From positions 2,819 to 66,818 of the forward strand of contig CAXXJI010000006.1 in the NCBI GenBank assembly GCA_963666035.2: a DNA stretch of 64,000 bases, given 5' to 3'. Of the stretch, positions 29,291-57,460 are shown piece by piece. A program made the position numbers and the translations under genes. Below the pieces are notes generated by a model that saw only the letters and a program-made list of their open reading frames with translations, searched no databases and was not told the DNA's origin. The DNA comes from Christensenellaceae bacterium (GTDB taxonomy: Bacteria; Bacillota; Clostridia; Christensenellales; CALMFG01). Numbering within the stretch: the first letter of the stretch is position 1; each line of letters starts with the position of its first letter.

Positions 29291-29300
29291 GGGAAAATAG

Positions 29301-38807: not shown

Positions 38808-40286
38808 ATGAAACATATTGCATTTGACTTAGGCGCAGAAAGCGGCAGGGCGATCCTTGGTGAAATCGTTGACGGACGATTGGAAACGAACGAGATACAT
38901 CGTTTTGCCACACAGGGTATTTTTGTAAACGGCAGTTTGCGCTGGGATGTTTATCGGTTGTTTGCAGAGCTGAAGCAGGCATTGAAGATTTATGCCGATA
39001 CATACGGAAATGAACCATGCACAATGGGTGTGGACACCTGGGGTGTTGATTTTGGTATTCTGGACAAAAATGGGAAACTCATCAGTATCCCGTATCATTA
39101 CCGGGATAAGCGAAATATTGGGACAACACAAGCGATAGAAGAAAAGATGGGTTTGGATAAACTCTATGCGAAGACCGGCATTGAGTATATGGAGATTAAC
39201 AGCCTTAATCAGTTGATCGCCGCAAAAGCACAGGATGACCCAACCATACAATGCGGTGAAAAGCTGCTGTTTATGGCGGATCTGTTGCAATACTTTTTGT
39301 GCGGTGTGGCAAAGGCGGAGTTTTGTCTGGCGGCCACGTCATGCCTGCTGAATAATCAGGATGGGACATGGGCAGACGAAGTGTTTGACACGTTTGGCAT
39401 ACCCAAACGATTACAGCCTGAAATTGTGCGCGGGGGAACGGTGCTTGGCAAAATCCGGGAGGATATTGCGCTTGAAACCGGTATTTCGCCTGAGTCGTTG
39501 ATTATTACACCGCCCACGCATGATACAGCTTGTGCCGCCGCGGTGGTGCCGAAGCTGGGCGGGAATGTTGCGTTTCTGTCGTCGGGGACCTGGTCTCTGG
39601 CCGGTTTGGAGCTGGACGATGCACAGATAACCGAAGAAGCGCGTTTGCTCAACATTGCCAACTCGGGCGGGCCATTTCAAAAAATTCTGTTTTTAAAATC
39701 CTTAACCGGACTTTGGTTGATTCAAAGATCACGCTTGGCATGGCGAAGAAAGCAGCCGGATTTGAGTTACGACGATATTGTTAAACTCGCCGAAAAGGCA
39801 GAACCGTTTTTTGGCATCATTGACACCAATGACGCAATGTTTGGCAATCCGCCGGATATGCCGAAGGCCGTATGCGAATATTTGCGAAAAACGGGGCAGA
39901 CCTCACCCGAATCGGATGATATCGGCCAAATTTCCAGGATCATCATGGAGTCGCTCGCATTACAATATAAATCAGCGTTTGCCGATCTTTGTAAGGCTTC
40001 GGGAAGAACGCTGGACATGGTCAATGCTCTCGGCGGGGGGATCCAAAATAAAATGTTGGTGCGGTTTACCGCAGAAGCATTGGGCGTTCCGGTGTTTGCA
40101 GGGCCGATCGAAGCAACTTCAGCGGGGAATATACTCATGCAGGCGTATGGCTCTGGTGAAATATCTTCGCTTGAGGATCTACGCCAAATTGTCATCAACA
40201 CCTATAAGCCCGAAGTGTATCAGCCGCAGCACGCGGAACGCTGGGAGAAACATTATCAAGCGTTCCAAAAGATTATCGGTAAATAA
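38808..40286 (+). CDS. RhaB-type FGGY kinase (rhamnulokinase/fuculokinase)
   Basis: MKHIAFDLGAESGRAILGE..HRF..NGSLRWDV is the characteristic RhaB-type N-terminus. 492 aa. Confidence 0.8.
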   Translation: MKHIAFDLGAESGRAILGEIVDGRLETNEIHRFATQGIFVNGSLRWDVYRLFAELKQALKIYADTYGNEPCTMGVDTWGVDFGILDKNGKLISIPYHYRDKRNIGTTQAIEEKMGLDKLYAKTGIEYMEINSLNQLIAAKAQDDPTIQCGEKLLFMADLLQYFLCGVAKAEFCLAATSCLLNNQDGTWADEVFDTFGIPKRLQPEIVRGGTVLGKIREDIALETGISPESLIITPPTHDTACAAAVVPKLGGNVAFLSSGTWSLAGLELDDAQITEEARLLNIANSGGPFQKILFLKSLTGLWLIQRSRLAWRRKQPDLSYDDIVKLAEKAEPFFGIIDTNDAMFGNPPDMPKAVCEYLRKTGQTSPESDDIGQISRIIMESLALQYKSAFADLCKASGRTLDMVNALGGGIQNKMLVRFTAEALGVPVFAGPIEATSAGNILMQAYGSGEISSLEDLRQIVINTYKPEVYQPQHAERWEKHYQAFQKIIGK

Positions 40287-40381
40287 GTGGTTTTTGCATC
40301 GTGAAAATCGGTGTGCGGATGTATAAAAAATAAAATTAAAAAATAAATTTTCTTCATCTTGGTTTCTCCTCTTTATTTTTA

Positions 40382-40417
40382 AAAAGTGCGCCTATTTCAG
40401 TTGCGCACTTTTTATTT
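40382..40417 (+). terminator. Rho-independent terminator ending the fucose operon
   Basis: Perfect 10-bp stem aaaagtgcgc / gcgcactttt with an 11-nt loop and a T-rich tail. Confidence 0.8.
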
Positions 40418-40684
40418 GTATGAAATTTCGTTTTTTTTGAAAGAGAGGAATTGATATTTTTATACTAAGCTAGTTCAAAATTATAATTTGGTAGTATGAA
40501 AAAGTAGAAAGACTTTATTGCCGGATTGTCTTACTCACGCGTGAAGAACTTTTAAGGTTGGTTTTTGCAGTACAAAAGCGCAACGAATGTCTTCGGCGGA
40601 TGTTTCATATGATTGGATATGGATTAAAGGAAGATCTTATACAAGAAAATGTTGCGATATAATTTGCTAAATACCAAGTAAAAC

Positions 40685-40732
40685 ATCAATAAAACAGTAA
40701 AAATATCAATAAAAGATCAAAAATGAATAAAA
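40685..40732 (+). promoter_or_regulatory. Phased direct repeats (ATCAATAAAA twice, ATGAATAAAA once) just upstream of the -35 box
   Basis: Copies at 40685-40694, 40705-40714 and 40723-40732, spaced 20 and 18 nt apart. Confidence 0.4.
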
Positions 40733-40749: not shown

Positions 40750-40778
40750 TTGACAGCAACCTTTGCATTCCATATAAT
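40750..40778 (+). promoter_or_regulatory. Consensus sigma-A promoter (TTGACA-17-TATAAT) for the DeoR/E2-E3-E1 operon
   Basis: ttgaca at 40750-40755 and tataat at 40773-40778, 50 nt upstream of ATG 40829. Confidence 0.7.
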
Positions 40779-40828: not shown

Positions 40829-41593
40829 ATGAACAATACGATGATTAACGAAAGAAGGCAGTTTATAGAAACCAAGCTGTTAGCGGAAGGTGAAATTAAA
40901 ATTGCCGAGCTAGCCGATCTATTTAATGTTTCAACCGAAACGATTCGCAAAGACCTTTTGTTTTTGGAAGAAAAGGGGATTGCAAAAAAGGGTTATGGGG
41001 GAGCAGTGGTAGTCAACGATCTGCTCGAACCCAGCTTTAAAGAGAAGTCGTCCAAGTACAAGGACGAAAAAACGAAAATCGCAAAAGCCGCGCTCAATTT
41101 TCTATCGGACGGCATGGTGGTGCTGATGGATGCGGGCAGTACGGTATATACGCTGGCCAAGATGCTGGCACTGAAAAAAAACCTGACTGTGTTTACCAAC
41201 AGCCCGAAATCGTCGCAGGTGTTAGACGATTATAAAATCAAAACCTATTTGGTCGGTGGCGAGATCCGCAACAACTCCAATGCGCTGGTTGGCGGATGGG
41301 CGGTTCGAGGCATTTCCGAGATTGAAGCGGATATCGCGATTCTTGGTACATCGGGTTTTTCCGGAAGGGAAGGCCCTTGCGTAGAGAACTTTGAAGAAGC
41401 GGAAGTGAAAAAAGCGATGATTAAAAGCGCAAACAAAACGGTCATCATCGGCGATTCCAGCAAAGCCAAAACGCATTCCATGATTGAATATGCCAAGTGG
41501 CAGAACGTAGACGCGTTTGTGACCGACGCAGGACTGGACAACGAAACATACGCGGCGATCAGCCGGGCGACCCAAGTGGTGATGGCAAAGTAG
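40829..41593 (+). CDS. DeoR-family transcriptional regulator
   Basis: HTH segment IAELADLFNVSTETIRKDLLFLEEKGI, and a DeoRC domain with VLMDAGSTV. 254 aa. Confidence 0.85.
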   Translation: MNNTMINERRQFIETKLLAEGEIKIAELADLFNVSTETIRKDLLFLEEKGIAKKGYGGAVVVNDLLEPSFKEKSSKYKDEKTKIAKAALNFLSDGMVVLMDAGSTVYTLAKMLALKKNLTVFTNSPKSSQVLDDYKIKTYLVGGEIRNNSNALVGGWAVRGISEIEADIAILGTSGFSGREGPCVENFEEAEVKKAMIKSANKTVIIGDSSKAKTHSMIEYAKWQNVDAFVTDAGLDNETYAAISRATQVVMAK

Positions 41594-41645
41594 ATGAAAA
41601 AAGAAAAACAAATTTATAGAAAGAAAAGTTTTAGGAGGATATAAA

Positions 41646-42932
41646 ATGGCACAGGCAGTAATCATGCCGCGGCAGGGACAGTCGGTTGAAAGCTGTATTT
41701 TGACCGAGATTGTAAAAAAAGAAGGCGAATCCGTCAGCGCAGGCGAGATATTGTTCTCTTGTGAGACGGATAAAGCCACGTTTGAAGTGGAAGCCGAAAT
41801 TTCGGGGACTGTGCTGAAATGGCTGGCCGAAGAGGGTGACGATGTCCCGGTTTTGGATAATGTCTGCATTATCGGTGAAGCGGGTGAAGATATCACCGCC
41901 TTATTAACCGCAGAAGACAGCCCGAAAGCAAACGAGGATAAAACCGAACAGCAAGCGCCGCAGGAACAGCCTGTAGTACAAGCTGCACCGGCGGCATCGG
42001 CGCAGGCGGGAGAAGCTTTGAAAGTGTCTCCAAGAGCGAGAAACATGGCGGAAAACCAGAAGGTGGACCTTACCAAAACCACACCCACCGGTCCGGAAGG
42101 CCGGATCATTGCGCGCGATGTGGCGGCGGCAGCCGCCGCGGGCTATAAGACGAATGCGGCGATACAGGATAGTGAGTCTGAGAAGCGCGGTAGAGCAGCA
42201 GCAAACCAGGTACAGATCGTTCTGCCGACCGCTGGAGATGCTGAGTTTACCGATGAAAAACTGTCCAACGTCAGAAAAAAAATTGCTGGCGCTATGCATG
42301 CCTCTCTGGCGGAAATGGCGCAATTAACGCTGAATGCATCCTTCGATGCGAGCGCGCTTTTAACGTTTAGGGAACAGGTGAAACATAACGGCGAGGCGAT
42401 GGGGCTTGGCAATATCACGCTCAATGATATGGTACTGTTTGCGGTGGCGAAAACACTGAAAAAGCATGCGGCATGCAACGCGCACTTTTTGGGCGATAAA
42501 ATCCGCTACTTTCAGGCGGTGAATCTCGGGGTAGCGGTGGATACCGACCGCGGGCTTTTAGTGCCTACCATTTTTGATGCTGGCAGCTACTCGCTGAACG
42601 ATCTTTCCGCAGTTGCCAAGCAGACGGTTGCGCAGGCAAAGACGGGGAATATTTCTCCCGACCTTTTGAAAGACGGGACGTTTACGGTGACCAACCTCGG
42701 AGCGCTTGGCGTCGAGAGCTTCACTCCGGTCATCAATCCTCCGCAGACCTGTATATTAGGGGTTTGTGCGATTACAGAAAAAGTAAAAATGGTTGGCGGC
42801 CAGATGACAGCTTATCCCAGCATGGGATTATCGCTGACCTTTGACCATCGGGCACTGGACGGCGCACCGGCGGCGCGATTCTTAAAAGACTTGGCGGACA
42901 GTCTTGAGAGCTTTTCGCTGTTGCTGATATAA
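41646..42932 (+). CDS. Dihydrolipoamide acyltransferase (E2) of a 2-oxo-acid/acetoin-type dehydrogenase complex
   Basis: A single lipoyl domain with the lipoyl-Lys in SCETDKATFEVEA (codon at 41772-41774). An Ala/Pro-rich linker. The E3-binding domain is VSPRARNMAENQKVDL..GPEGRIIARDV. The catalytic motif is DHRALDG (His codon at 42846-42848). Confidence 0.9.
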   Translation: MAQAVIMPRQGQSVESCILTEIVKKEGESVSAGEILFSCETDKATFEVEAEISGTVLKWLAEEGDDVPVLDNVCIIGEAGEDITALLTAEDSPKANEDKTEQQAPQEQPVVQAAPAASAQAGEALKVSPRARNMAENQKVDLTKTTPTGPEGRIIARDVAAAAAAGYKTNAAIQDSESEKRGRAAANQVQIVLPTAGDAEFTDEKLSNVRKKIAGAMHASLAEMAQLTLNASFDASALLTFREQVKHNGEAMGLGNITLNDMVLFAVAKTLKKHAACNAHFLGDKIRYFQAVNLGVAVDTDRGLLVPTIFDAGSYSLNDLSAVAKQTVAQAKTGNISPDLLKDGTFTVTNLGALGVESFTPVINPPQTCILGVCAITEKVKMVGGQMTAYPSMGLSLTFDHRALDGAPAARFLKDLADSLESFSLLLI

Positions 42933-42943
42933 AGGAGAAAAAC

Positions 42944-44305
42944 ATGATATATGATTTGATTATATTGGGCGGCGGTCCGGCAGGATATCTTGCCGCTGAA
43001 CGTGCAGGACACGCCGGCCTTAAGACGCTGGTGATAGAAAAAGAACACATGGGCGGAGTATGTCTGAACGAAGGATGCATCCCGACCAAAACCCTGCTGT
43101 ATTCGGCTAAAATAGCGGACAGCGCGGCGCATGGCGAAAAGTACGGCGTAAAAGCCGAAGTGTCTCTCGACCACGCGGCAGTCATTAAGCGCAAGGATAA
43201 AGTAGTAAAGAATCTGACCGGCGGTGTGCGTGCGGCTGTTAAAGCGGCAGGAGCGGAGATGGTCAGTGGCTTTGGCACCATCACGGGCAGAACGGCAGAG
43301 GGCTATCGTGTGGAAGCGGAGGGCAGTACCTATGAAGGAAAGCGTCTGCTGATCGCGACCGGCTCCAGTGCCATCATCCCGCCGATTCCGGGTGTGATTG
43401 AAGGCTATAAGAGCGGATTTGTGATGACCAGCACCGAAGCACTGGCATTGACCGAAGTGCCGAAAACATTAGTCGTTATTGGCGGCGGTGTGATTGGTCT
43501 GGAGATGGCAGGGTATTTTAACTCGGCCGGAGCGAAGGTCACTGTGGTTGAAATGCTGGATAAAATCGGCGGTATGATTGACGACGAAATCGGAAAGAAT
43601 CTGCAAAAGAATATGGAAAAGAAGGGTATCACGTTTAAGCTGGGTTGTCAGGTGACGCGCGTCGAAAACGGTTCGGTATTCTTTGAAGAAAACGGTAAAG
43701 AGGAATCGGCCGCGGGCGAAAAGGTGCTGCTTTCTATCGGCAGGCGGCCCAATACGGCGAATATCGGTCTTGAAAGTGTTGGCGTTGCCACGGAGCGCGG
43801 CGCGGTGCTGACCGACGAATATATGAAAACCAATCTGCCCGAAGTGTATGCCGCAGGCGACGTGAACGGCAAATCGATGCTGGCGCATACCGCCTACCGT
43901 GAAGCGGAGGTGGCGGTGAAAAATATGCTGGGCAAGCGGGACCGGATGCGTTATACGGCGGTGCCCTCGGTGATCTACACTAATCCGGAAGTGGCCGGAG
44001 TCGGCGTGACCGAAGCGGCGGCAAAGGAAAAGGGACTGGATGTGATCGTAAAAAGTATACCGATGAATTATTCCGGTCGGTATATGGCGGAAAACGAAGG
44101 CGGCGATGGCTTTATTAAAATCATCGTGGACAATGAGTGGCAAAAACTGATCGGCGTTCATATGGTGGCCAATTATGCATCCGAGATCATATATGGTGCT
44201 GGGATGATGGTGGAAAAAGAGCTGACGATTGATGAGATCAAATCCCTGATTTTCCCGCACCCCACGGTCAGCGAGATTATTCGAGAAGCAATTTTTCAGA
44301 TTTAG
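42944..44305 (+). CDS. Dihydrolipoyl dehydrogenase (E3)
   Basis: FAD motif ILGGGPAGY. Redox disulfide GGVCLNEGCIPTK. NAD motif VIGGGVIGLE. C-terminal HPTVSE. Confidence 0.9.
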   Translation: MIYDLIILGGGPAGYLAAERAGHAGLKTLVIEKEHMGGVCLNEGCIPTKTLLYSAKIADSAAHGEKYGVKAEVSLDHAAVIKRKDKVVKNLTGGVRAAVKAAGAEMVSGFGTITGRTAEGYRVEAEGSTYEGKRLLIATGSSAIIPPIPGVIEGYKSGFVMTSTEALALTEVPKTLVVIGGGVIGLEMAGYFNSAGAKVTVVEMLDKIGGMIDDEIGKNLQKNMEKKGITFKLGCQVTRVENGSVFFEENGKEESAAGEKVLLSIGRRPNTANIGLESVGVATERGAVLTDEYMKTNLPEVYAAGDVNGKSMLAHTAYREAEVAVKNMLGKRDRMRYTAVPSVIYTNPEVAGVGVTEAAAKEKGLDVIVKSIPMNYSGRYMAENEGGDGFIKIIVDNEWQKLIGVHMVANYASEIIYGAGMMVEKELTIDEIKSLIFPHPTVSEIIREAIFQI

Positions 44306-44347
44306 TTTTTTAAAAATGCTAATTAAAGATTTATTAGGAGATATAAA

Positions 44348-46822
44348 ATGACAAAAGTATTAGTGGTGGATCCAAGTGAGAAAAGAAAATCGGGTGTTTT
44401 GAAATTTAAAGATATTCCCATCAACACCTACCAAAAGTCGGTCAAAGACGAAAAAGACAATTTTACAAAGGATGAATTTTTGCGTATCTATCGCGATATG
44501 ACCATCATTCGCGAATTTGAAAGTATGCTGAACGCCATCAAGGTGGCAGGACAGTATGAGGGTGTGGAATATAACCATCCCGGTCCGGCGCATCTTGGCA
44601 TCGGACAGGAAGCGGCCTATGTCGGTCAGGCGTTTGATCTTTCTATCGAAGATTTCACGTTCGGCTCCCATCGTTCGCATGGTGAGATATTGGCCAAGGG
44701 ATTGTCGGCCATCGATAAGCTTTCGGAAGATGAGCTTGAAAAAATCCTAAGCGAGTTCTGGGACGGCGAAACCTATGACGTGGTGAAAAAGCACACAAAG
44801 GCCACCGACAAAAAAGAGATCGCAAAAGAATTTCTGCTGTACGGCACGCTGGCCGAAATTTGGGCCAGAAAAACCGGATTCAACCGCGGGCTGGGCGGCT
44901 CGATGCATGCCTTCTTCACGCCTTTTGGCATTTACCCCAACAACGCGATTGTGGGCGGCTCAGGTGATATTGCGGTGGGCGGTGCGCTGTTTAAAAAATG
45001 CAACCAGAAAGACGGCATCGTGATCTGTAATATCGGTGACGGTTCACTGGGCTGCGGTCCGGTGTTTGAAGGGATGAACCTTTCGGCGATGGGTCAGTTT
45101 AAAACCCTATGGGAAGAAGGCTATAACGGCGGATTGCCTTTGGTCTTCAATATATTTAATAATCATTACGGCATGGGCGGACAGACCAGCGGCGAGACGA
45201 TGGCGTATGAATTTGCGGCGCGTTTGGGTGCGGGCATCAGCCCCACACAGATGCATGCCGAACGCGTGGATGGATACAACCCGCTGGCGGTGATTGACGC
45301 TTACAGAAGAAAGAGAAAAATACTCGAAGACGGTGACGGCCCGGTTCTGTTGGATGTAGTGACATACCGCTACAGCGGACACAGCCCTTCGGACGCTTCA
45401 ACTTACCGTACAAAAGAAGAGATTGCGATGTGGGAAGAAAATGATTCGATCGCGGCCTTTAGGAAACAATTGCTGGATGCAAAAGTGGCGACTGAAAAAG
45501 AGCTTGCCGCGATTGAAGCCGGAACCAAAGCGGATATCATGCAGGCGGTGCTTTTGGCTAAGGACGAAACCATTTCTCCGCGCATGGATTTAAACGCTAA
45601 TCCGAATGCGATTGCAGATTTGATGTTTTCAAACCAGCATGTGCCTTCGATGGATACAAAACGCACACCCGTGACATTGATGCCTAAGGAAGAAAATCCG
45701 CGGGTACAGCAGCTTGCTAAGAAAATTCGTTTTGCGTTTGATGAGAACGGCAAACCGGTCAGCAAAAACAAATCCTATCAATTTCGTGATGGTGTTTTTG
45801 AAGCGATGATTGATAAATTCTATGAAGACCCGACCATGATTGCATACGGCGAGGATTGCCGCGATTGGGGCGGCGCGTTTGCCGTCTACCGTGGGCTGAC
45901 CGAAAGCCTGCCTTACCATCGGTTCTTTAATGCACCGATATCCGAAGGCGCGATTGTCGGTTCGGGTGTGGGTTATGCCATGACCGGCGGACGTGCTGTG
46001 GTGGAATTGATGTATATCGATTTTCTGGGCAGAGCGGGCGACGAAGTATTTAATCAGATGAGTAAATGGCAGAGTATGAGCGCAGGCATTATCAAGATGC
46101 CGCTGATCTTGCGTATGTCCATCGGTTCAAAATACGGGGCTCAGCATTCTCAGGACTGGTCGGCGCTTTGCACCCATATTCCGGGCTTAAAAGTGGTGTT
46201 CCCAGCAACGCCGTATGACGCCAAAGGCTTGATGGCCGCGGCTTTGAACGGCACCGATCCGGTGATCTTCCTGGAGAGCCAGCGCATCTATGATGTGGCG
46301 GAACAGTTCCATGAGGGCGGCGTACCCGCAGAATCCTATGAAATTGAAATCGGTGAACCGGATATCAAACGGGTGGGCGGCGATGTGACTATACTCTCTA
46401 TCGGCGCAACACTGTATAACGCGATTAAAGCGGCCGATGAACTAAAAGAAAAATACAATGTGGAAGCAGAAGTGATTGATGCCAGAAGCTTGGTGCCATT
46501 CAACTATGAAAAAGTCATCGAATCGGTCAAGAAAACCGGACGCATCATTGTAACCGGCGACGCTTGTGCCAGAGGTAGCCATATGAGCGATCTGGCGCAA
46601 AATATTTCCGAACTGGCGTTTGATTATCTGGATGCACCACCGGTGGTGGTGGGCGCAAAGAACTGGATTACACCGGCCCATGAGCTGGAAGACGCTTTCT
46701 TCCCGCAGCCGCACTGGATGATTGACGCGATTCATGAAAAAATTCTGCCGTTGCCGGGGCATACCTGCAAGGCGAATTATACCACATTGGAACAGTTGCG
46801 TAATGCAAAACGCGGTGTGTAA
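44348..46822 (+). CDS. Fused E1 alpha-beta thiamine-diphosphate-dependent dehydrogenase component
   Basis: 824 aa. The alpha part has GGSMH and the TPP motif GDG..(38 aa)..NN (nt 45035-45163). The beta part (from about aa 477) has YGEDCRDWGGAF, NAPISEGAIVG and a transketolase-C-like end. A linker of about 50 aa spans nt 45623-45775. Confidence 0.85.
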   Translation: MTKVLVVDPSEKRKSGVLKFKDIPINTYQKSVKDEKDNFTKDEFLRIYRDMTIIREFESMLNAIKVAGQYEGVEYNHPGPAHLGIGQEAAYVGQAFDLSIEDFTFGSHRSHGEILAKGLSAIDKLSEDELEKILSEFWDGETYDVVKKHTKATDKKEIAKEFLLYGTLAEIWARKTGFNRGLGGSMHAFFTPFGIYPNNAIVGGSGDIAVGGALFKKCNQKDGIVICNIGDGSLGCGPVFEGMNLSAMGQFKTLWEEGYNGGLPLVFNIFNNHYGMGGQTSGETMAYEFAARLGAGISPTQMHAERVDGYNPLAVIDAYRRKRKILEDGDGPVLLDVVTYRYSGHSPSDASTYRTKEEIAMWEENDSIAAFRKQLLDAKVATEKELAAIEAGTKADIMQAVLLAKDETISPRMDLNANPNAIADLMFSNQHVPSMDTKRTPVTLMPKEENPRVQQLAKKIRFAFDENGKPVSKNKSYQFRDGVFEAMIDKFYEDPTMIAYGEDCRDWGGAFAVYRGLTESLPYHRFFNAPISEGAIVGSGVGYAMTGGRAVVELMYIDFLGRAGDEVFNQMSKWQSMSAGIIKMPLILRMSIGSKYGAQHSQDWSALCTHIPGLKVVFPATPYDAKGLMAAALNGTDPVIFLESQRIYDVAEQFHEGGVPAESYEIEIGEPDIKRVGGDVTILSIGATLYNAIKAADELKEKYNVEAEVIDARSLVPFNYEKVIESVKKTGRIIVTGDACARGSHMSDLAQNISELAFDYLDAPPVVVGAKNWITPAHELEDAFFPQPHWMIDAIHEKILPLPGHTCKANYTTLEQLRNAKRGV

Positions 46823-46853
46823 TGCACCGCCGAAAAGAACAGGAGGAGATAAA

Positions 46854-48119
46854 ATGAAAACAACAGCAGTTAGGTTATATGGCAAAGATGATCTGCGCTT
46901 GGAAACTTTTGAGCTGCCCCCGATAAAAGACGATGAAATATTAGCTAAGGTGATATCGGACAGTATCTGTATGTCATCCTATAAAGCGACCAAGCAGGGT
47001 GCGGACCACAAGCGTGTACCGGATAACGTTGCCGAAAGCCCGGTGATGATTGGGCACGAATTCTGTGGGCAGATCATTGAAGTCGGTAAAAAGTGGCAGG
47101 ACAAGTTTAAAGTCGGCAAGCATTTCTCAATACAGCCTGCGTTCAATTATAAAGGGTCGCTGGATGCGCCCGGCTATTCCTACCCCTATATCGGTGGGGA
47201 CGCCACATATGTGGTGATACCCAACGAAGCGATGGAGATGGATTGCCTGTTGGAATACAATTCCGACGTTTACTTTTATGGTTCACTTTCCGAGCCGGTC
47301 AGCTGCATCGTCGGGGCGTTTCATGCGTCGTACCATACCACCCAAGGGTCGTATGTGCATGAGATGGGAATCAAAGAAGGCGGTAAGATGGCGATTTTGG
47401 CAGGTGTCGGCCCGATGGGGCTTGGTGCGATCGACTATGCCATCAACAATGAACGTCGCCCTGCACTTTTGGTGGTGACCGATATTGACGATGCCAGACT
47501 GGAACGCGCGTCCAAAATCTATACGGTGGAAAAAGCGAAAGAAAATGGCGTGGACCTGCGCTATTTTAATACAAAGGATCCGGCATCCGAAGCTGAGCTT
47601 TTAAAGCTCACTGGAGGAGAAGGGTTTGATGATATCTTTGTGATGGCCCCGGTCAAGCCGGTGGTGGAGCAGGCCGACAGGCTTTTGGGTCACGATGGTT
47701 GCCTTAATTTCTTTGCAGGGCCCACCAATACTGAGTTCTCAGCCAGCTTTAACTTTTATAATGTACATTATAACGCCACGCATATTGTGGGTACATCCGG
47801 CGGGAATAATGATGACATGCGTGAATCCATTGTACTGATGTCGGGCGGCGTGGTGACACCCGCGGCGATGATTACGCATGTGGGCGGACTGAACGCGGTC
47901 ATTGAAACGACCAAAAACCTGCCGAATATTCCGGGCGGGAAAAAGTTGATCTATACCCATGTGGATATGCCCTTAACGGCGATTGATGACTTTGAGGAAA
48001 AGGGCAAAGAAGACCCGTTCTTTAAGGCTTTGGCAGATATTGTTGCGAAAAACGGCGGATTCTGGTGCGGCGAAGCTGAGCAATATGTCCTGAATAACGC
48101 CAAGAAGATTGACGAATAG
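46854..48119 (+). CDS. Long (421 aa) zinc-dependent dehydrogenase, sorbose-1-phosphate-reductase (SorE)-like
   Basis: I chose the start at MKTTAVRLYG, 7 nt after AGGAGGAG. GHEFCGQI is the zinc motif and LAGVGPMGLGA the Rossmann motif. The longest ORF (from 46722) overlaps the end of E1 and was rejected. Confidence 0.75.
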   Translation: MKTTAVRLYGKDDLRLETFELPPIKDDEILAKVISDSICMSSYKATKQGADHKRVPDNVAESPVMIGHEFCGQIIEVGKKWQDKFKVGKHFSIQPAFNYKGSLDAPGYSYPYIGGDATYVVIPNEAMEMDCLLEYNSDVYFYGSLSEPVSCIVGAFHASYHTTQGSYVHEMGIKEGGKMAILAGVGPMGLGAIDYAINNERRPALLVVTDIDDARLERASKIYTVEKAKENGVDLRYFNTKDPASEAELLKLTGGEGFDDIFVMAPVKPVVEQADRLLGHDGCLNFFAGPTNTEFSASFNFYNVHYNATHIVGTSGGNNDDMRESIVLMSGGVVTPAAMITHVGGLNAVIETTKNLPNIPGGKKLIYTHVDMPLTAIDDFEEKGKEDPFFKALADIVAKNGGFWCGEAEQYVLNNAKKIDE

Positions 48120-48130
48120 GGGAGTTTTGT

Positions 48131-48910
48131 ATGAGTGAACAAAGAATGAAAGATAAAGTGGTGGTAATCACCGGCGCTGCACAGGGGCTGGGACGCGCGC
48201 TGGCTGTGCGCCTGGCAAAAGAGGGGGCTAAGGTGGCTATTGGCGACATGAATATAGAGGGTGCTGCAGAAACGGCTAACCTCTGTGCGGACGCGTTTGC
48301 GCAAACGCTGGATGTCACCGATTACGGATCCTGCGAAGCGCTGATGAAAGCAGCCAACGAAAAATATGGTAAAATCGATATTGTGGTCAGCAATGCGGCA
48401 ATTTTGATATCAGGAGCGATTGAGGAATTTGATTCAGCGCGCTGGAAAAAGGTGATCGATGTGAATCTTTGTGGTTTTTTCAATACCGCCAAGGCCGCTG
48501 TGCCCTACTTAAAAGCCAATGATGCGGGCGTGATTATCCAAATCAACTCGAAATCTGGCAAAAAGGGTTCATACAAAAACAGTGCCTACGCCGCGTCCAA
48601 GTTCGGCGGCATCGGGTTGGTGCAGAGTCTGGCTTTGGAACTGGCCGAAGACAATATTCGCGTCAACGCAATTTGCCCGGGCAATCTTCTGAATTCGCCG
48701 CTCTGGACGGACAGCCTATTCAAGCAGTATGCTAAGAATCAGGGCATCACCGAAGCGGAAGTCCGCCAGAAATATATTGACCAGGTGCCGCTGAAACGTT
48801 CATGCGAATACGTGGACATCGAGAACGCATTGCTCTTTTTGGCCAGTGATGAGGCATCTTATATGACCGGCCAGGCGATCAACGTGACCGGTGGACAGCA
48901 AATGAATTAA
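48131..48910 (+). CDS. SDR-family oxidoreductase, sorbitol-6-phosphate 2-dehydrogenase (SrlD)-like
   Basis: TGAAQGLG. IIQINSKSGKKGS..YAASKFGGIGLVQSLALELAE..ICPGNLLNSPLW..YIDQVPLKR..INVTGGQ is nearly colinear with E. coli SrlD. Confidence 0.8.
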   Translation: MSEQRMKDKVVVITGAAQGLGRALAVRLAKEGAKVAIGDMNIEGAAETANLCADAFAQTLDVTDYGSCEALMKAANEKYGKIDIVVSNAAILISGAIEEFDSARWKKVIDVNLCGFFNTAKAAVPYLKANDAGVIIQINSKSGKKGSYKNSAYAASKFGGIGLVQSLALELAEDNIRVNAICPGNLLNSPLWTDSLFKQYAKNQGITEAEVRQKYIDQVPLKRSCEYVDIENALLFLASDEASYMTGQAINVTGGQQMN

Positions 48911-48920
48911 CGGAGCGTTT

Positions 48921-50198
48921 ATGGGAAATCAAAGTTTTGCCGAATTAGCACAAAAATTGAACAGCCGTGATTCATCCGACCGACTCGCTGCACTTAAGGA
49001 AGTCAAGGTTCCGGTGCGGGAAAAGTTTTCGGGTATCACCAACAATCATGTGCATTCAGGGTATTCTTTTTCGCCCTATATGCCGGCGCGAATCGTGCTG
49101 GAAGCGTATCGGAATGACCTGGATGTAGTAGGCATTATGGATCATGATGCGATCGGCGGCGCGGAAGAATTTATCAAAGCCGGAAAAGAATTTGGCATTG
49201 CCACCACCGTCGGGTTTGAGGTACGTACCGATTGGTCGGATACGCCTTTTAAGGACCGGCGGCTGAATAATCCGGACCAAATTGGCTGCGCTTATATGTG
49301 TGTACACGGCATACCGCATCAGAAAATTGCCGATACGGCAGCGTTTTTAAACAACATCGTCACCGCCAGAAACGTGCGAAACCGCGCGATGGTGGCGAAA
49401 ATAAACGCACTGGTGCCGGATACACCGATATCGTTCGATAAAGATGTGGTGCCGCTCTCATTGCTGGAAGCAGGGGGCAGCATCACCGAACGACATATCC
49501 TGTTTGCATTGTCAAACAAGATGATAGAGAAACAAGGCAAGGGAGAAACACTGATAAAATATTTGTCCGATGTGCTGCGTGTTTCTCTTTCTGCTGGACA
49601 GCAAAATACACTGCTGGATACGACATACGAGTATTATGCCTATGACGTATTAAACATCCTAAAAAGTGCGTTTGTTGCCAAGATATTTATCCCAGCTGAA
49701 CCACCCGAAACACCGTCTATCAAAGACTTAATCGCTTTTTGCAACAGCATCGGCGCCATTGCGGCGTATGCTTATTTGGGCGATGTGACCGAATCGCCGA
49801 CCGGAGACAAAAAAGCGCAGGTGTTTGAGGACGCCTATCTGGATGAACTGTTCGCCTATCTTGAGACGCTGGGTGTGCCCGCGGTGGCCTATATGCCCTC
49901 TCGCAACACGGCGGCGCAGATGGCGCGCGTGATGACGCTTTGCGAAAAACATGGCCTGTTTCAGATCAGCGGCGAGGATATCAACCAACCGCGCCAATCG
50001 TTTATCTGCAAGCAGTTAAAAGAACCGGCATTTTTGCATTTGGTAGAATCCGCATGGGCTTTGGTGGGGCATGAGAAGAAGGCTTCAATGGATATTCAGG
50101 ACGGAATGTTTGCCAATCAGCAAAAAAAAGTGCCGCTGGATGAAAGAATCAAGATATATGCGGCATTCGGACGCGAAGGCAGCGAGCAGAATGAATAG
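48921..50198 (+). CDS. PHP-domain metal-dependent phosphoesterase-like protein
   Basis: 425 aa. NNHVHSGYSFSPY and GIMDHDAIGG are PHP His/Asp motifs. Confidence 0.65.
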   Translation: MGNQSFAELAQKLNSRDSSDRLAALKEVKVPVREKFSGITNNHVHSGYSFSPYMPARIVLEAYRNDLDVVGIMDHDAIGGAEEFIKAGKEFGIATTVGFEVRTDWSDTPFKDRRLNNPDQIGCAYMCVHGIPHQKIADTAAFLNNIVTARNVRNRAMVAKINALVPDTPISFDKDVVPLSLLEAGGSITERHILFALSNKMIEKQGKGETLIKYLSDVLRVSLSAGQQNTLLDTTYEYYAYDVLNILKSAFVAKIFIPAEPPETPSIKDLIAFCNSIGAIAAYAYLGDVTESPTGDKKAQVFEDAYLDELFAYLETLGVPAVAYMPSRNTAAQMARVMTLCEKHGLFQISGEDINQPRQSFICKQLKEPAFLHLVESAWALVGHEKKASMDIQDGMFANQQKKVPLDERIKIYAAFGREGSEQNE

Positions 50199-50232
50199 AG
50201 TTTAGGTTTTATAGAGGGATCAATTTCTTATG

Positions 50233-50272
50233 GGTGCATTTCACAAGTTAAAAGAGGAATGCACCTTTTCTA
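50233..50272 (+). terminator. Rho-independent terminator ending the E2-E3-E1 operon
   Basis: ggtgcatt / aatgcacc stem followed by ttttctat. Confidence 0.65.
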
Positions 50273-50316: not shown

Positions 50317-51924
50317 CTATTTTTTTAAACTCACGAACAGGCTGTCTCGATACTGGTTTGGTGTCAGGCCAGTATTTTTTTTAAACAGCTTATAAAAATA
50401 CTTTTCATCCTGAAATCCGGTTTCATAGGCGACCTGATAGTTCTTCTTGCTGATGTCCTTCAGCAATTTCTTCGATTGTTCAAGCCGATAGTCGTTGAGA
50501 TAATTGATGAAGTTCTCTTTTGTTTCCTGCTTAAATAGAACGCTTAAATATGCAGGCGTGATAAATAGCTCGCTGGCCGCAGTTTGCAGATTGATGTTTT
50601 CCCGATAGTGTACATGGATATAATCGATGGCCGCTTTGATGAGATGATTCACCTGTGTATGATCGCTGATAGCAGAGATGATATCTTTGAGGGTGGATAT
50701 AAGGGCTTCTTTGAGCGTGGCGAGTGTCTTCGCGGCGTTGATTTCGTCGAACTTTTGATAGATCAACGCGTTAATTTCGGCAAAATCGATATTCCGATCG
50801 GCACAGTATTTAAAAATATTACTGAGAAGTGTGATACCGATTTTTTTCGTGAACATGCAGTCGCCGGAAAGACCACCTTCAAAAGTCTGGAAAAAATCAT
50901 CAATATAAGCACGAGCCAGCGATTTGTCTCCTGCTTCGATTAAAGAAAGGATTTTTTGTTCCTGCTTAAACGGATAGAAATGTTGGTAATGGTCCTTTAA
51001 CATACTTGGCTCAAAAACTGTAACCGCTTCAAGGCCGAGGAAAACGCCGCTTTCAAGTGCGGTCAGCGCCTGGTGAAAGGAAACCGAAGCCAATAGCGGG
51101 GAAGCAACCGTTTGTCCGATGCCTGCAGAAAAATCAAAAGTATACTGGTCGCAAAGGGATGAATAAAGTGTTTGCATCAGTGAAAGCAGGTCATTGCTCT
51201 CTTCACCGCTGGCAATCAGTACAAAACTATCCCGATAATAGATGACCTCACAGTGGGATAAAGCACGGATATGCTGGCGAATCTGCGCCAGAACGCTGAG
51301 CACCAGATGGTCGAATTCTTCAAGGGTGTTGGTTTCATAGATACTGTCAATATCCAAAAAGCGAATCACCGCGGAACAGCAGGTTTCGCGGGTCAGATGG
51401 ATATCGTATTGAGCGGCGTCCTCAAAAAAAGCATCGGGTTTGCGCAAGGAATCTTCCAGCAGGCTGACCAGAAGGTTTTCTTTCAGCGATGTTTTTTGAG
51501 CTTGGAACAGTGAATGATAGTCATTGACCATGGTCTGCTTTACTTTATCTTCATTGGCCAGATTTTTGGCACGCAGGACAGCCTGCAGAATCTCTTCGAC
51601 CGAGCAGGGCTTGAGCAGATAGTTGTTGGCTTTCAGTTGGATGGCTTTGCAGGCGTATTCAAAATTATCGTGCCCGCTGAGGATAATCATCTGAATATGA
51701 AGTCCCGCGGCGTTGATTTCCTCTATCAGGTTTAGTCCGTTAAGATAGGGCATCTGGATATCAATGATGGCGATATCCGGAGAAAGGCGCGTTAATAGCT
51801 CTAAACCGTCGCGACCGTTGTAGGCAACCCCGCAGACTTGGATATCGTATTTTTCCCAGTCGATAAAGTCTTTGATTCCGCGGACCTGTTCAAATTCATC
51901 ATCAATGATGGCGAGTCTATACAT
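50317..51924 (-). CDS. Response regulator with AraC-type HTH output (YesN-like)
   Basis: Receiver domain with LAIIDDE..PDIAIIDIQMP. The C-terminal AraC HTH includes ITPAYLSVLFKQETKENF..GFQDEKYFYKLFKK. 535 aa. Confidence 0.9.
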   Translation of the reverse strand: MYRLAIIDDEFEQVRGIKDFIDWEKYDIQVCGVAYNGRDGLELLTRLSPDIAIIDIQMPYLNGLNLIEEINAAGLHIQMIILSGHDNFEYACKAIQLKANNYLLKPCSVEEILQAVLRAKNLANEDKVKQTMVNDYHSLFQAQKTSLKENLLVSLLEDSLRKPDAFFEDAAQYDIHLTRETCCSAVIRFLDIDSIYETNTLEEFDHLVLSVLAQIRQHIRALSHCEVIYYRDSFVLIASGEESNDLLSLMQTLYSSLCDQYTFDFSAGIGQTVASPLLASVSFHQALTALESGVFLGLEAVTVFEPSMLKDHYQHFYPFKQEQKILSLIEAGDKSLARAYIDDFFQTFEGGLSGDCMFTKKIGITLLSNIFKYCADRNIDFAEINALIYQKFDEINAAKTLATLKEALISTLKDIISAISDHTQVNHLIKAAIDYIHVHYRENINLQTAASELFITPAYLSVLFKQETKENFINYLNDYRLEQSKKLLKDISKKNYQVAYETGFQDEKYFYKLFKKNTGLTPNQYRDSLFVSLKK

Positions 51925-53758
51925 CAGGCAATTCTCCTTTGATGGTCAGTACCGGGGACAAGGGCAGGACGATGTGCACAGTTGTTCCTTGCCCGATCTC
52001 GCTTGTCATGTCCAATCGGTATTCATCACTGTAATAGAGGGACAAACGGTTGATGACATTTTTAATGCCGTAGCCGCTTTTTTCCGAAGACTGAGCGGAA
52101 GATTCGGACGGATTAGTGATACTTTTCAGCACCGATTCAGGCATGCCGGGACCGTCGTCCGCGATGACAAAGTGTAGTTTATTTTCAGCTTCATACCCGC
52201 GGATGGTGATGGTCGTTTGCTTGGCTTCCACCTCCAGGCCGTGAACGATGGCGTTTTCCACAAAGGGCTGTAAAATGAGTTTGGGGATCATATAATCCAT
52301 GATGGCGGGGTCGAAGTCAAGAATATACTTCAGCTTGTCCCGATATCTTTTTCCTTGAAGCAAAATGTAATGATCGATGAATTCCTTTTCTTTGGTGACA
52401 TGCAAAAACTCATGTCCGACGTTTAATGCCAGCCTGAAAATTTTGCTTAACGCGTGAATCATGTCTCTGACTTCGTCGGTATCGCCCGCCACGGCTTTCC
52501 AATAGATGGTATCCAATGTGTTATAGAGAAAATGCGGATTGATCTGAGCCTGAAGCGCTTTGAGTTCAGCGATCTTTTCCTCCAATCCCAGAACATATAC
52601 TTCGTGGATAAGGCCGTGAATGCGGGAAATCATCTGGTCATATTCCGCACCCAGGAGCCCTATTTCGTCCCGGTACTTAAAGCCGACATATTCTTCAAAA
52701 TTTCCGTTTTTAACTCGGCTCATGGACTCCAAAAGGTTTTTGATCGGTTTTGTGAGCAGAGAAGAAGTATATGTGGTAAAGTAAAAACCGAGGAATAAAG
52801 CAAACAGAGAAGTGACCAGCGCAAACAGAGGCACAAAACCTGCATTGGTGGTGAAACTGTCCAAAGGTACAACATTGAGCACTTTCCAATCTGCGCTTTT
52901 GAGGGAAGCGAAGGTGATGAGATATTTTTGGCCGTTGTAGCGGTAAATCTCTGAACTCTCGGTTTGCGCCAAAACGGATGCAGGGATTTTGGCTAGAAGC
53001 GCGTTGATCGCTGTAAGATCCTCAGGCTGGGGGTCGATGAAAAACGGCGTATTGGTTTCGTCTAAAAACATCATCGTGCTGCCTCGGGTGGTCAATGTGC
53101 CCTCATACAGCGGCTTGATTGCCGACAGATTCATAGAGAGCATGATATAGCCTTTGGTGGAATAATCGTTCAGTTTTAAAACGGTCCGATACATGGATAT
53201 CTTAGCGTTTTTATTGTCGAGTATATAGGTGGTGTCCGATTTTGGTATATATGCCCAAAGCGACGCGCCCTTTGCAGCCAGAGCGCGCTGATAAGCATCC
53301 GTTTTTTTTAAGGTATGAAATGTAGGGATATTATTGCTCTTATCGGTGGCGGCGTAGTAGGTATAACCATTGTTGGCATACAGACTGATAAAACTCATAT
53401 AGCTTTTTGAAACCAAAAGGTTATTCAACATATATTCCACATAGCTTTCGTCAGCGAGATTCTGTTCCAGCTCCGAGGGCGTGTAGCAGATGGTTCGCTG
53501 AACGATATTGTCTGAACAGATGAAAGAGGAAAGCTCTTCTGCGTCGTTTTGAATATAATCGATGCTGTTGCTGATTTGGTTGACATCTCGAAGATTGATA
53601 ACCGCCAGTTCGTTGGCGATGGTGTGGCGGTAGAGAGAAAACGAAGCGGAGCCGATGACCAGCGCCACAAAAAGAATGATAAATGAATTAATCATGATCA
53701 TTTTATAGCGGATACTGATATTCATATAGCTGTTTTTTATTCGTTGCAAAAAGCGCAT
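51917..53758 (-). CDS. Sensor histidine kinase (YesM-like; two TM helices, extracytoplasmic sensor domain, HAMP)
   Basis: TM helices IILFVALVIGSASFSL and FALVTSLFALFLGFYF. H-box QINPHFLYNTLDTI. ATPase motif DDGPGM. It overlaps the response-regulator gene by 8 nt. Confidence 0.9.
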   Translation of the reverse strand: MRFLQRIKNSYMNISIRYKMIMINSFIILFVALVIGSASFSLYRHTIANELAVINLRDVNQISNSIDYIQNDAEELSSFICSDNIVQRTICYTPSELEQNLADESYVEYMLNNLLVSKSYMSFISLYANNGYTYYAATDKSNNIPTFHTLKKTDAYQRALAAKGASLWAYIPKSDTTYILDNKNAKISMYRTVLKLNDYSTKGYIMLSMNLSAIKPLYEGTLTTRGSTMMFLDETNTPFFIDPQPEDLTAINALLAKIPASVLAQTESSEIYRYNGQKYLITFASLKSADWKVLNVVPLDSFTTNAGFVPLFALVTSLFALFLGFYFTTYTSSLLTKPIKNLLESMSRVKNGNFEEYVGFKYRDEIGLLGAEYDQMISRIHGLIHEVYVLGLEEKIAELKALQAQINPHFLYNTLDTIYWKAVAGDTDEVRDMIHALSKIFRLALNVGHEFLHVTKEKEFIDHYILLQGKRYRDKLKYILDFDPAIMDYMIPKLILQPFVENAIVHGLEVEAKQTTITIRGYEAENKLHFVIADDGPGMPESVLKSITNPSESSAQSSEKSGYGIKNVINRLSLYYSDEYRLDMTSEIGQGTTVHIVLPLSPVLTIKGELPDV

Positions 53759-53857
53759 ACTTTTTAGCTTCTATCCTAAAACAATCTTGCTTGATATGGC
53801 CTTATTATACACGATTAGTGCAAAATCGTCTTTAAATAGCACAATATAAAAAAGATT

Positions 53858-53919
53858 GTGCACCATTTCGTTAAATTGTCTACTTACTTGAAGAAGGACG
53901 GGCGATAGAGTATAGGAAG
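53858..53919 (+). promoter_or_regulatory. Copy 1 of a duplicated ~60-bp promoter/operator element (upstream of the binding-protein gene)
   Basis: gtgcaccatttcgttaaattgtctacttacttgaag..gcgatagagtatagg aligns with 55511-55575 (about 85% identity over the first 38 nt). Confidence 0.6.
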
Positions 53920-53951
53920 TAACATTATCAAAAACTATAGGAGGTTTTTTC

Positions 53952-55307: not shown

Positions 55308-55341
55308 CGCACACAGATTTTTAAAGCACATAAGGGATGGG

Positions 55342-55385
55342 AAAAGCAGAGAATTCAGGTTCTCTGCTTTTTCATTTTATTTTTC
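55342..55385 (+). terminator. Hairpin terminator/attenuator after the binding-protein gene
   Basis: Perfect stem aaaagcagagaa / ttctctgctttt followed by a T-rich tail. Confidence 0.7.
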
Positions 55386-57445: not shown

Positions 57446-57460
57446 AAAAAGGAGCGATTT

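Follow-up and report, generated by a model that had tools for sequence, protein, structure and literature searches.

Results

A seven-gene operon encoding a lipoamide complex and sugar dehydrogenases

We analyzed a 64,000-nucleotide stretch of DNA (the window) from a Christensenellaceae bacterium (GenBank assembly GCA_963666035.2, contig CAXXJI010000006.1, positions 2,819 to 66,818 of the forward strand). Seven genes on the + strand span positions 40829 to 50198 and encode, in order, a DeoR-family regulator, the E2, E3, and fused E1 components of a lipoamide-dependent dehydrogenase complex, a zinc-dependent dehydrogenase (Zn-dehydrogenase), a short-chain dehydrogenase (SDR), and a PHP-domain protein. 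A reading of the letters alone (here called the original prediction) had described these genes as one operon and proposed that the complex cleaves a sugar or polyol derivative by an undescribed oxidative route. We found that the operon is genuine and belongs to a gene cluster that is widespread, conserved, biochemically uncharacterized, and tied to the catabolism of fucose and rhamnose.

The open reading frames (ORFs), a promoter scan, and the fold of a 3' hairpin bore out the single-operon reading. The gaps between successive genes are 52, 11, 42, 31, 11, and 10 nt, so that the tight spacing claimed earlier stands, with a measured range of 10 to 52 nt in place of 10 to 55 nt. On the 5' side is a perfect sigma-70-type promoter (TTGACA-17-TATAAT, 40750 to 40778, + strand), the sole 12/12 match between positions 40000 and 51000 on both strands; its hexamers and 17-nt spacing are kept upstream of the orthologous operons in two related loci, L001 and L002. 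The intrinsic terminator (50232 to 50272, + strand) has an 11-bp stem (50232 to 50266), a 13-nt loop, and a UUUUCU tail and folds with a free energy (dG) of -14.7 kcal/mol (z -3.75); a consensus scan missed it because of the 13-nt loop. A second inverted repeat (40380 to 40414, + strand), with a 12-bp perfect stem and a U-run (dG -15.6 kcal/mol, z -4.67), closes the fucose operon that lies upstream. Because this terminator is strong, the seven genes form a transcription unit of their own.

The regulator encoded by the first gene (40829 to 41593, + strand) combines an HTH_DeoR domain (55.8 bits) with a DeoRC sensor domain (151.7 bits), which places it among the DeoR-family sugar-phosphate-responsive repressors. 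It falls below every NCBIfam equivalog cut-off, with GlpR, AgaR, and SrlR as its best matches, and is 33% identical to Escherichia coli SrlR. Orthologues with 51 to 61% identity precede the E2 or Zn-dehydrogenase gene in L001, L002, and L082. A tandem repeat of AAAAYATCAATAAAA at 40680 and 40700, followed by a degenerate third copy (40680 to 40732 in all, + strand), has a spacing of about 20 nt and abuts the -35 box. Exact copies of AAAAYATCAATAAAA are enriched over shuffled sequence (4 matches versus 0.84 expected), and the orthologous promoters of L001 and L002 carry a CCAAGTRAAAAC box plus repeats at the equivalent position. These repeats are a candidate DeoR operator. An operator common to the seven-gene operon and the fucose locus was sought and not found; the repeat is absent from the promoter region of that locus (27568 to 27800), which has its own LacI-type regulator.

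A complete complex outside the curated dehydrogenase families

The E2 dihydrolipoyl acyltransferase (41646 to 42932, + strand) consists of one lipoyl domain, an E3-binding domain, and a catalytic domain (PF00364, PF02817, and PF00198 [2-oxoacid_dh]), with the motifs ETDKAT and DHRALDG in its translation. The E3 (42944 to 44305, + strand) scores 485 bits against TIGR01350 (cut-off 409), carries Pyr_redox_2 and dimerization domains in Pfam and a CLNEGC redox disulfide, and on these features is a bona fide dihydrolipoyl dehydrogenase. The fused E1 alpha-beta (44348 to 46822, + strand; 824 aa) is identified as thiamine-diphosphate dependent by its Pfam domains (E1_dh at residues 167 to 408, Transket_pyr at 478 to 648, and Transketolase_C at 672 to 789) and its GDG...NN motif; its N-terminal ~165 aa are a family-specific region. 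In motifs and domains all three components belong to the 2-oxo acid and acetoin dehydrogenase multienzyme complexes. The motifs and the E3-binding domain that had been read from the letters were all seen in the translations or by Pfam, and with every one of them intact the prediction of a catalytically complete complex is supported.

The original prediction also held that this is not pyruvate dehydrogenase (PDH), 2-oxoglutarate dehydrogenase (OGDH), or a classical acetoin (aco) system, and comparison with curated hidden Markov models (HMMs) agrees. Both E1 and E2 fall below every PDH, OGDH, and AcoC equivalog cut-off by wide margins. The scores against the PDH equivalogs are 204 versus a cut-off of 394 bits for E1 alpha, 237 versus 321 for E1 beta, and 258.6 versus 445 for E2, for which PDH E2 is the best NCBIfam match. 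Against the AcoC model (NF011457), E2 reaches 61 bits (cut-off 307), with the lipoyl domain alone aligned, and neither a butanediol/acetoin dehydrogenase nor AcoR accompanies the complex, which sets it apart from AcoABCL. Relatives in the PDB are ordinary E1 subunits with modest scores. The separation from characterized E1 and E2 families rests on HMM cut-offs together with a gap in sequence identity that is described below.

These comparisons bear on one alternative, namely that the complex is an ordinary dehydrogenase of anaerobic Bacillota and Bacteroidota, acting on pyruvate, acetoin, or a branched-chain 2-oxo acid, and that its colocation or coregulation with deoxyhexose genes in some genomes is fortuitous. 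In both HMM and PDB comparisons the top matches are PDH and branched-chain 2-oxo acid dehydrogenase (BCKDH) subunits, and the JGI family name is 2-oxoisovalerate dehydrogenase E1. The missed PDH and OGDH cut-offs point the other way, as does control by a DeoR-family protein rather than by a central-metabolism regulator, and an acetoin version would be without butanediol dehydrogenases and an AcoR-type activator. Taken with the gene neighborhoods presented below, this alternative seems to us unlikely, yet serious enough to be kept in view.

Two dehydrogenases related to enzymes of hexitol phosphate metabolism

The Zn-dehydrogenase (46854 to 48119, + strand; ADH_N and ADH_zinc_N domains) has 421 aa when counted from the first ATG at 46854; the mechanical ORF begins at a TTG at 46722, within E1. 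It is 53% identical to proteins annotated as sorE in Citrobacter and Klebsiella (over 99% of the length) and 55% identical to E. coli YggP, and only 25 to 28% identical to 2,3-butanediol dehydrogenases. By its full-length similarity to Zn-dehydrogenases of ~410 to 420 aa, judged by identity rather than by a curated HMM, it is a SorE/YggP-type, ketose-1-phosphate reductase-like enzyme, as predicted. The SDR (48131 to 48910, + strand; adh_short) is 45% identical to and colinear with E. coli SrlD (259 versus 259 aa), again as had been read from the letters. It passes the SrlD equivalog by a narrow margin (NF009050, 321 bits versus a cut-off of 307), which is a criterion of similarity and not of substrate specificity. 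In contrast, it scores 200 against the BudC model (cut-off 270) and likewise misses the acetoin-reductase cut-off. Neither dehydrogenase is therefore a butanediol or acetoin enzyme. A plain acetoin/butanediol operon was rejected on the grounds that the SDR passes SrlD and not BudC, the Zn-dehydrogenase is SorE-like, and AcoC is unmatched.

In the L-sorbose pathway, a SorE and SrlD/SorD pair shifts the keto group between chain ends via a hexitol phosphate. The two dehydrogenases could thus represent a genuine L-sorbose/D-glucitol branch unrelated to the complex, leading from sorbose 1-phosphate through glucitol 6-phosphate to fructose 6-phosphate, with the PHP protein as a hexitol-phosphate phosphatase. 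The resemblance to the Klebsiella and E. coli L-sorbose enzymes (53 to 55% identity for SorE and 45% for SrlD/SorD, and the pairing of a reductase with a dehydrogenase) fits such a branch, and Rodionov et al. 2021 marked the corresponding pair in Caldicellulosiruptor “Sorbose?” (PMC8579813). We nevertheless consider it very unlikely. No genes of a phosphotransferase system (PTS) occur in the window locus or in related loci, and no other dedicated sorbose or glucitol transporter was found in the operon or in related loci. The recurrent neighbors are instead RhaM, FucU, FucI, RhaA, and RhaB, a fucose/rhamnose context, and in many loci both genes share one operon with E2-E3-E1, here also with the PHP gene.

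The PHP-domain protein

The last gene (48921 to 50198, + strand) encodes a 425-aa PHP-fold, metal-dependent phosphoesterase-like protein. Its Pfam PHP match (28.1 bits versus a cut-off of 26.4) spans the N-terminal motif only; a PDB sequence search also matched that motif alone, and a fold search was used instead. The best Foldseek neighbors of the AlphaFold2 model (pLDDT 93) in the PDB are TrpH/YciV-type phosphoesterases (3e0f and 2yb1) and RNase AM (9etk), with TM scores of 0.66 to 0.74; identity to characterized superfamily members is only 13 to 20%, and the score against the pAp phosphatase model is 31.7 (cut-off 400). Residues H43, H45, D74-H75-D76, E100, H192, D288, E352-D353, H384, and many arginines are invariant in 35 homologues. 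The HxH motif, the full set of candidate metal ligands, and the barrel fold assign the protein to the TrpH/YciV subgroup of the PHP superfamily, and it belongs to a large unnamed family whose members adjoin the SDR in nearly every locus. By its modeled fold it is probably a phosphomonoesterase, with a phosphate ester from the pathway or from a side product as its substrate; with the fold as the basis for calling it a phosphatase, phosphoesterase-like is the limit of the assignment.

Conserved gene company in Clostridia and Bacteroidales

We sought relatives of the fused E1 in a collection with one genome per species and confirmed them in at least 575 stretches; neighborhood counts refer to the best 80 of the 575. 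Most of these 80 loci belong to Christensenellales and other Clostridia, and some belong to Bacteroidales; in both groups the fused E1 orthologues are 62 to 91% identical. E2-E3-E1 is nearly universal across the 80. The Zn-dehydrogenase (61 to 72% identity), SDR, and/or PHP genes are also present in 24 of them (and in 15 of the 34 loci that are at least 20 kb long), so the expectation that SrlD-like, SorE-like, and PHP genes co-occur with the fused E1 across genomes held. The neighborhood is conserved well beyond the genome in which it was noticed. Of the 80 E1 loci, 17 have a Zn-dehydrogenase orthologue with 61 to 73% identity, as do L081, L082, and L087.

Across Clostridia and Bacteroidales the operons are tight and the order of the companion genes is shuffled. 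L020 reads ZnADH-LipB-LipA-E2-E3-E1-DeoR-SDR-PHP-RhaM. In some loci the SrlD-like gene is swapped for a fusion of a class II aldolase-like domain and an SDR, as in L075, which reads DeoR-(class II aldolase-like-SDR fusion)-PHP-ZnADH-E2-E3-E1-LplA, and in L060, which reads ZnADH-E2-E3-E1-LplA-(class II aldolase-like-SDR fusion)-PHP. In L057, RhaA-RhaB is divergent from E2-E3-E1-PHP-like-(aldolase-like-SDR fusion)-ZnADH. RhaB is also present in L044 and L058, and in these two loci a gene for a fructose-6-phosphate aldolase (FSA)-type enzyme lies inside the operon, between E1 and PHP. RhaA/RhaB, RhaM, FucI, FucU, and FGGY kinases are the recurrent neighbors.

The SDR-PHP pair also occurs away from the complex, in L087 to L089, beside RhaM, FucI, FucU, and a rhamnulokinase-like kinase; no member of the Pfam family Aldolase_II is listed in these three loci. 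L088 has a FucI 74% identical to that of the window in one operon with FucU, kinase, SDR, and PHP genes. On one 3.09-Mb contig, the complex sits among housekeeping genes (L084), and a kinase-SDR-PHP-ZnADH set lies beside RhaM ~630 kb away (L087). Partners that are unlinked therefore need not be absent.

The neighborhoods speak on both sides of the explanation that this is an ordinary 2-oxo acid dehydrogenase. In its favor, most of the 80 loci show E2-E3-E1 by itself, beside genes such as ValS, FolC, PFK, UvrB, or TIM, and lipoylation genes co-travel with it, as they should if this were the main lipoylated enzyme. Against it, linkage with the same three non-PDH genes recurs, shuffled, across orders and phyla.

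Several further arrangements were seen in these comparisons. In L008 (positions 1 to 12469, Christensenella tenuis), two E2-E3-fused-E1 sets lie ~2 kb apart on the same strand with an unrelated gene between them; their paralogous E1s share 59% and 71% identity with the window E1, suggesting that functions have diverged inside the family. In L081 (10001 to 13943), a SorE-like orthologue (73% identity) lies downstream of a sugar ATP-binding cassette (ABC) system with genes for a low-molecular-weight phosphatase, a fructosamine-kinase-like protein, and a 390-aa protein, and there is no E1 nearby; comparison ruled out the 390-aa neighbor as a PHP homologue. In L087 (20074 to 21296), a separate, unfused E1 alpha/E1 beta pair follows the kinase-SDR-PHP-ZnADH set at a distance of 9 kb, beside an aminotransferase.

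Orthologues on alphaproteobacterial plasmids

A comparison of the E1 alpha half, with its N-terminal extension, gave fused orthologues at 48 to 49.5% identity on plasmids of Rhizobium (pRL8) and Agrobacterium (pAt). In alignments that start at residue 1, the rhizobial fused E1s are 48 to 53% identical to the window protein, whereas the next-best E1 alpha subunits are only ~32% identical or less.

In the Rhizobium pRL8 locus (L085), the genes after the fused E1 encode a 78-aa lipoyl protein, an AcoC-type alpha/beta-hydrolase with a match to the model for the acetoin dehydrogenase acetyltransferase, a fructokinase-like kinase, and a SorC-type regulator; genes for a rhamnose-type binding protein, a FucU-like mutarotase, and a psicose-3-epimerase-like protein flank this set. 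The Agrobacterium pAt15955 locus (L086) is without the fructokinase-like kinase; it contains LipA, an enzyme of the mannitol dehydrogenase family, a sugar ABC system, and a true XylB. In both, E2 is split into the 78-aa lipoyl protein and a separate alpha/beta-hydrolase acetyltransferase. No E3 gene lies within L085 or L086, no class II aldolase was found in the rhizobial loci, and we found no publication on L085 or L086.

Alphaproteobacteria possess their own PDH. That they nonetheless carry the fused E1 in sugar/polyol loci, with SorC and RpiR regulators and an AcoC-type E2, argues against an ordinary dehydrogenase. Judged by this gene content, the alphaproteobacterial fused E1 is plainly a predicted sugar or polyol catabolic enzyme that would deliver an acetyl-type unit.

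A rhamnose-induced counterpart in Caldicellulosiruptor

The word “undescribed” in the original prediction was too strong, because a related cluster has been published for Caldicellulosiruptor and its complex tentatively placed in rhamnose catabolism (PMC8579813). In C. bescii, Athe_0695-0706 encode FucA, RhaD1, a hypothetical protein, SrlD, SorE, LipB, LipA, E2, E3, E1, RhaR2 (DeoR), and RhaA (PMC8579813). The run of SrlD, SorE, LipB, LipA, E2, E3, fused E1, and DeoR beside RhaA, FucA, and RhaD has the gene set and local order of our loci L038, L039, and L052, a likeness that was drawn from the published gene list and not from sequence. The cluster differs from the window in having class II aldolases and RhaA, whereas the window locus includes FucI but no aldolase. 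Rodionov et al. 2021 named the complex a “predicted dehydrogenase in rhamnose utilization,” suggesting L-lactaldehyde as the substrate with no assay, and tabulated identities of 33 to 42% between the Caldicellulosiruptor orthologues and AcoC, AcoL, and the Cupriavidus necator acetoin dehydrogenase entry P27746 (PMC8579813). In C. saccharolyticus, Csac_0865-0876 are strongly induced by rhamnose, and their presence tracks growth on rhamnose; the role of the remaining genes in this set “remains unclear” according to a 2013 review (PMC4187192). PDH activity is not known in Caldicellulosiruptor (PMC3561251), a further point against an ordinary PDH.

The published assignment raises the alternative that the complex handles the C3 fragment that the classical aldolase route produces. 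Caldicellulosiruptor is without a lactaldehyde dehydrogenase and reductase, and Athe_0702-0704 were assigned to that last step (Rodionov et al. 2021, PMC8579813). L-Lactaldehyde would be oxidized on thiamine diphosphate, or, in a hydroxyacetone variant, would be converted by the two dehydrogenases, via 1,2-propanediol, to hydroxyacetone, which would undergo FSA-type condensation with glyceraldehyde 3-phosphate before cleavage. The cluster has class II aldolase genes or domains alongside it in Caldicellulosiruptor as well as in L049, L057, L059, L060, L062, L075, L077, and L080, and the FSA-like gene of L044 and L058 would suit the variant. The RhaW SDR domain of RhaEW oxidizes lactaldehyde (PMC3870299), and such an SDR architecture replaces the SrlD-like gene in some loci. 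On the other hand, class II aldolases are absent from the window locus, L087, L088, L089, and the rhizobial loci. Both dehydrogenases are 45 to 55% identical to enzymes specific for hexose or hexitol phosphates, which argues for phosphorylated C6 substrates, and the 1:1 yield of propanediol in C. saccharolyticus means that lactaldehyde is mostly reduced there, not oxidized (PMC4187192). On balance we regard action on a C3 fragment as rather improbable.

The upstream fucose locus and the remainder of the window

The seven-gene operon was predicted to lie directly downstream of a fucose-type locus, and the genes of such a locus were found. On the + strand it begins with a sugar ABC transporter (ATPase, permease, and binding protein), a FucU/RbsD mutarotase, and an XylB-like FGGY kinase (27800 to 33516), followed by a galactitol-1-phosphate 5-dehydrogenase-like (GatD-like) Zn-dehydrogenase (33542 to 34597, + strand; NF007642, 329 bits versus a cut-off of 550), orthologues of which (67% identity) lie downstream of E1 in L011 and L012. 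An aldo/keto reductase (AKR) gene comes next as two ORFs (34625 to 35155 and 35242 to 35637) that match Pfam positions 3 to 131 and 179 to 289 of the same family; the split gene is either a frameshifted pseudogene or the product of an assembly indel. A GatZ/KbaZ-family protein (35634 to 36909, + strand; TIGR02810, 465 bits versus 569) has no GatY partner, and its frame is broken near the 5' end, in an A-run at ~35670 to 35725; the ATG at 35634 is in a different frame from the ORF starting at 35725. The L-fucose isomerase FucI (36982 to 38745, + strand; NF008220, 1055 bits versus 775) and a rhamnulokinase-like FGGY kinase (38808 to 40286, + strand; 356 bits against the rhamnulokinase model versus 528) complete the upstream operon. 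In L044, L057, L058, L087, and L088, a homologue of this last kinase (36 to 42% identity) is the immediate neighbor of E2 or of the SDR-PHP pair.

No FucA, RhaD, or FucO gene occurs in the upstream fucose locus. The sole class II aldolase-family gene of the window (14086 to 14754) belongs to a separate DeoR/ABC cluster and scores below all FucA, RhaD, and AraD cut-offs. That cluster (13295 to 17991) comprises a second DeoR gene, this aldolase/epimerase-family gene, and two taurine/nitrate-type ABC ATPase-permease pairs.

Divergent from the ABC genes of the fucose locus, on the - strand, a 746-aa protein (25328 to 27568) fuses a LacI helix-turn-helix and a periplasmic-binding-type sensor to SBP_bac_1, an unusual architecture for a regulator. 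Also on the - strand, an ORF at 1853 to 2830 is 32% identical to the LplA-type lipoate-protein ligase that other loci have beside the complex, and its product might lipoylate E2. Downstream of the operon, an unrelated locus (50317 to 63771) contains an AraC-type response regulator and a histidine kinase, an ABC sugar transporter, a GH3 enzyme, and a GH94 enzyme of the cellobiose/cellodextrin phosphorylase type.

Discussion

The link to 6-deoxyhexoses is strong, given the RhaA, RhaB, RhaM, FucI, and FucU neighbors and the induction of the Caldicellulosiruptor genes by rhamnose. We tentatively propose, as a reading that comes close to probable without quite reaching it, that the operon is a DeoR-repressed branch of L-fucose/L-rhamnose catabolism in which the lipoamide complex replaces or supplements the aldolase route. 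The same genes turn up next to those for fucose and rhamnose in several phyla, so that a deoxy-sugar phosphate is the probable substrate, with acetyl-CoA as a product of its cleavage by the complex. We infer the same from the sugar-phosphate-sensing regulators, the AcoC-type E2 of the rhizobial loci, and the FSA gene of L044 and L058, in addition to the recurring gene set itself.

The proposed route would begin with the upstream FucU, FucI, and rhamnulokinase-like kinase, the last of which likely supplies a 6-deoxyketohexose 1-phosphate. The SorE-like Zn-dehydrogenase would reduce C2 to yield a 6-deoxyhexitol 1-phosphate, and the SrlD-like SDR or the upstream GatD-like enzyme would then oxidize the penultimate carbon, at the methyl end, to yield a 1-deoxy-ketohexose 6-phosphate. 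This product would be a methyl ketol (CH3-CO-CHOH-R) for which C1 phosphorylation, and with it an aldolase split, would be impossible. The fused E1 would add thiamine diphosphate to the ketone and break the C2-C3 bond, releasing a tetrose 4-phosphate, chemistry that may be likened to acetoin cleavage or to DXP synthase in reverse. The remaining hydroxyethyl group would be oxidized onto the lipoyl arm of E2 and leave as acetyl-CoA, while E3 would regenerate the lipoamide and make NADH. We speculate that the GatZ-like protein could serve as a 4-epimerase of deoxy-tagatose 6-phosphate.

Parts of this scheme have precedents. One is AcoABCL of Cupriavidus necator, Clostridium magnum, and Bacillus subtilis, which shares a thiamine-diphosphate alpha/beta E1, a lipoyl E2, and an E3, and in which a methyl ketol is likewise converted to acetyl-lipoyl and an aldehyde; the rhizobial orthologues employ an AcoC-type alpha/beta-hydrolase acetyltransferase. 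The window complex differs in its fused E1 with a conserved extra N-terminal region, in missing the AcoC model, and in having a sugar-phosphate-type regulator and sugar-enzyme neighbors in place of an AcoR-type activator and a butanediol dehydrogenase. Phosphoketolase similarly removes a C2 unit beside a sugar-phosphate backbone, converting fructose 6-phosphate to acetyl phosphate and erythrose 4-phosphate; DXP synthase condenses pyruvate with glyceraldehyde 3-phosphate to make 1-deoxyxylulose 5-phosphate (DXP), and LsrF cleaves a phosphorylated diketone to acetyl-CoA and dihydroxyacetone phosphate. To our knowledge, none of these three uses lipoamide or is architecturally homologous to the E1/E2/E3 complex.

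The proposed intermediate has a close relative in the literature. FSA aldolases cleave 1-deoxyfructose 6-phosphate, a natural metabolite, in the newly reported YbiW/PflD “anhydroglycolysis” pathway (PMC13450708), and this glycyl-radical pathway was the only one that we found in the literature on the compound. The two systems share a 1-deoxy-ketohexose 6-phosphate that is barred from glycolysis via C1 phosphorylation, and an FSA-like gene in the L044 and L058 operons. They differ in that the YbiW/PflD pathway performs a nonoxidative aldol split to hydroxyacetone and glyceraldehyde 3-phosphate, and there is no glycyl radical enzyme here.

Several observations weigh against the proposed branch. 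C. saccharolyticus converts rhamnose to 1,2-propanediol, acetate, H2, and CO2 at 1:1:1:1 (PMC4187192); this is the outcome of an aldolase and lactaldehyde reduction, and the proposed route is therefore not the bulk flux in that organism. The Caldicellulosiruptor cluster does carry class II aldolases (PMC8579813), and class II aldolase-like sequences, as genes or as domains, occur in several loci from Bacteroidales and Oscillospiraceae. Most E1 loci consist of E2-E3-E1 only, often amid housekeeping genes, which fits a general substrate such as pyruvate. By our own bookkeeping, L-fuculose or L-rhamnulose would give D-threose 4-phosphate and not erythrose 4-phosphate, barring an epimerase. The upstream GatZ-like and AKR genes are frameshifted in the assembly, and the scheme gives the always-present PHP protein no step. 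Finally, our literature search found no characterization of the complex, of a SorE-like enzyme in such a context, or of the PHP protein.

With these points counted, the central idea of the original prediction is the best-supported reading, partly anticipated in print and unproven. None of the outcomes that the prediction had named in advance as refuting was seen. What stands of it is the complete complex, its distance from PDH and aco systems, the types of the two dehydrogenases, the conserved company, and the 6-deoxyhexose link; what falls is the claim that the system was undescribed. A broader version of the idea, to be held a little more loosely still, is that complexes with a fused E1 may constitute a widespread class of lipoamide-dependent “ketose-phosphate dehydrogenases” that oxidatively cleave a 1-deoxy-ketose phosphate, derived from fucose or rhamnose through a keto shift, to acetyl-CoA and an aldose phosphate.

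Fucose and rhamnose are abundant in mucin and plant cell walls. If our proposal is correct, anaerobes of guts and digesters, as well as rhizobia, would have an aldolase-free and propanediol-free route for 6-deoxyhexoses, one that would bypass lactaldehyde, propanediol, and the B12-dependent microcompartment and would yield more ATP. We know of no characterized lipoamide complex that acts on anything other than 2-oxo acids, glycine, or acetoin, and cleaving a sugar phosphate would add a new class of reaction to those of this machinery. Such an activity would further explain the persistence of “PDH-like” genes in strict anaerobes that use pyruvate:ferredoxin oxidoreductase, and it would give a role to the rhamnose-induced Caldicellulosiruptor genes that the 2013 review left unclear. 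The family of fused E1 proteins is large, and these ideas are readily testable in genetically tractable hosts.

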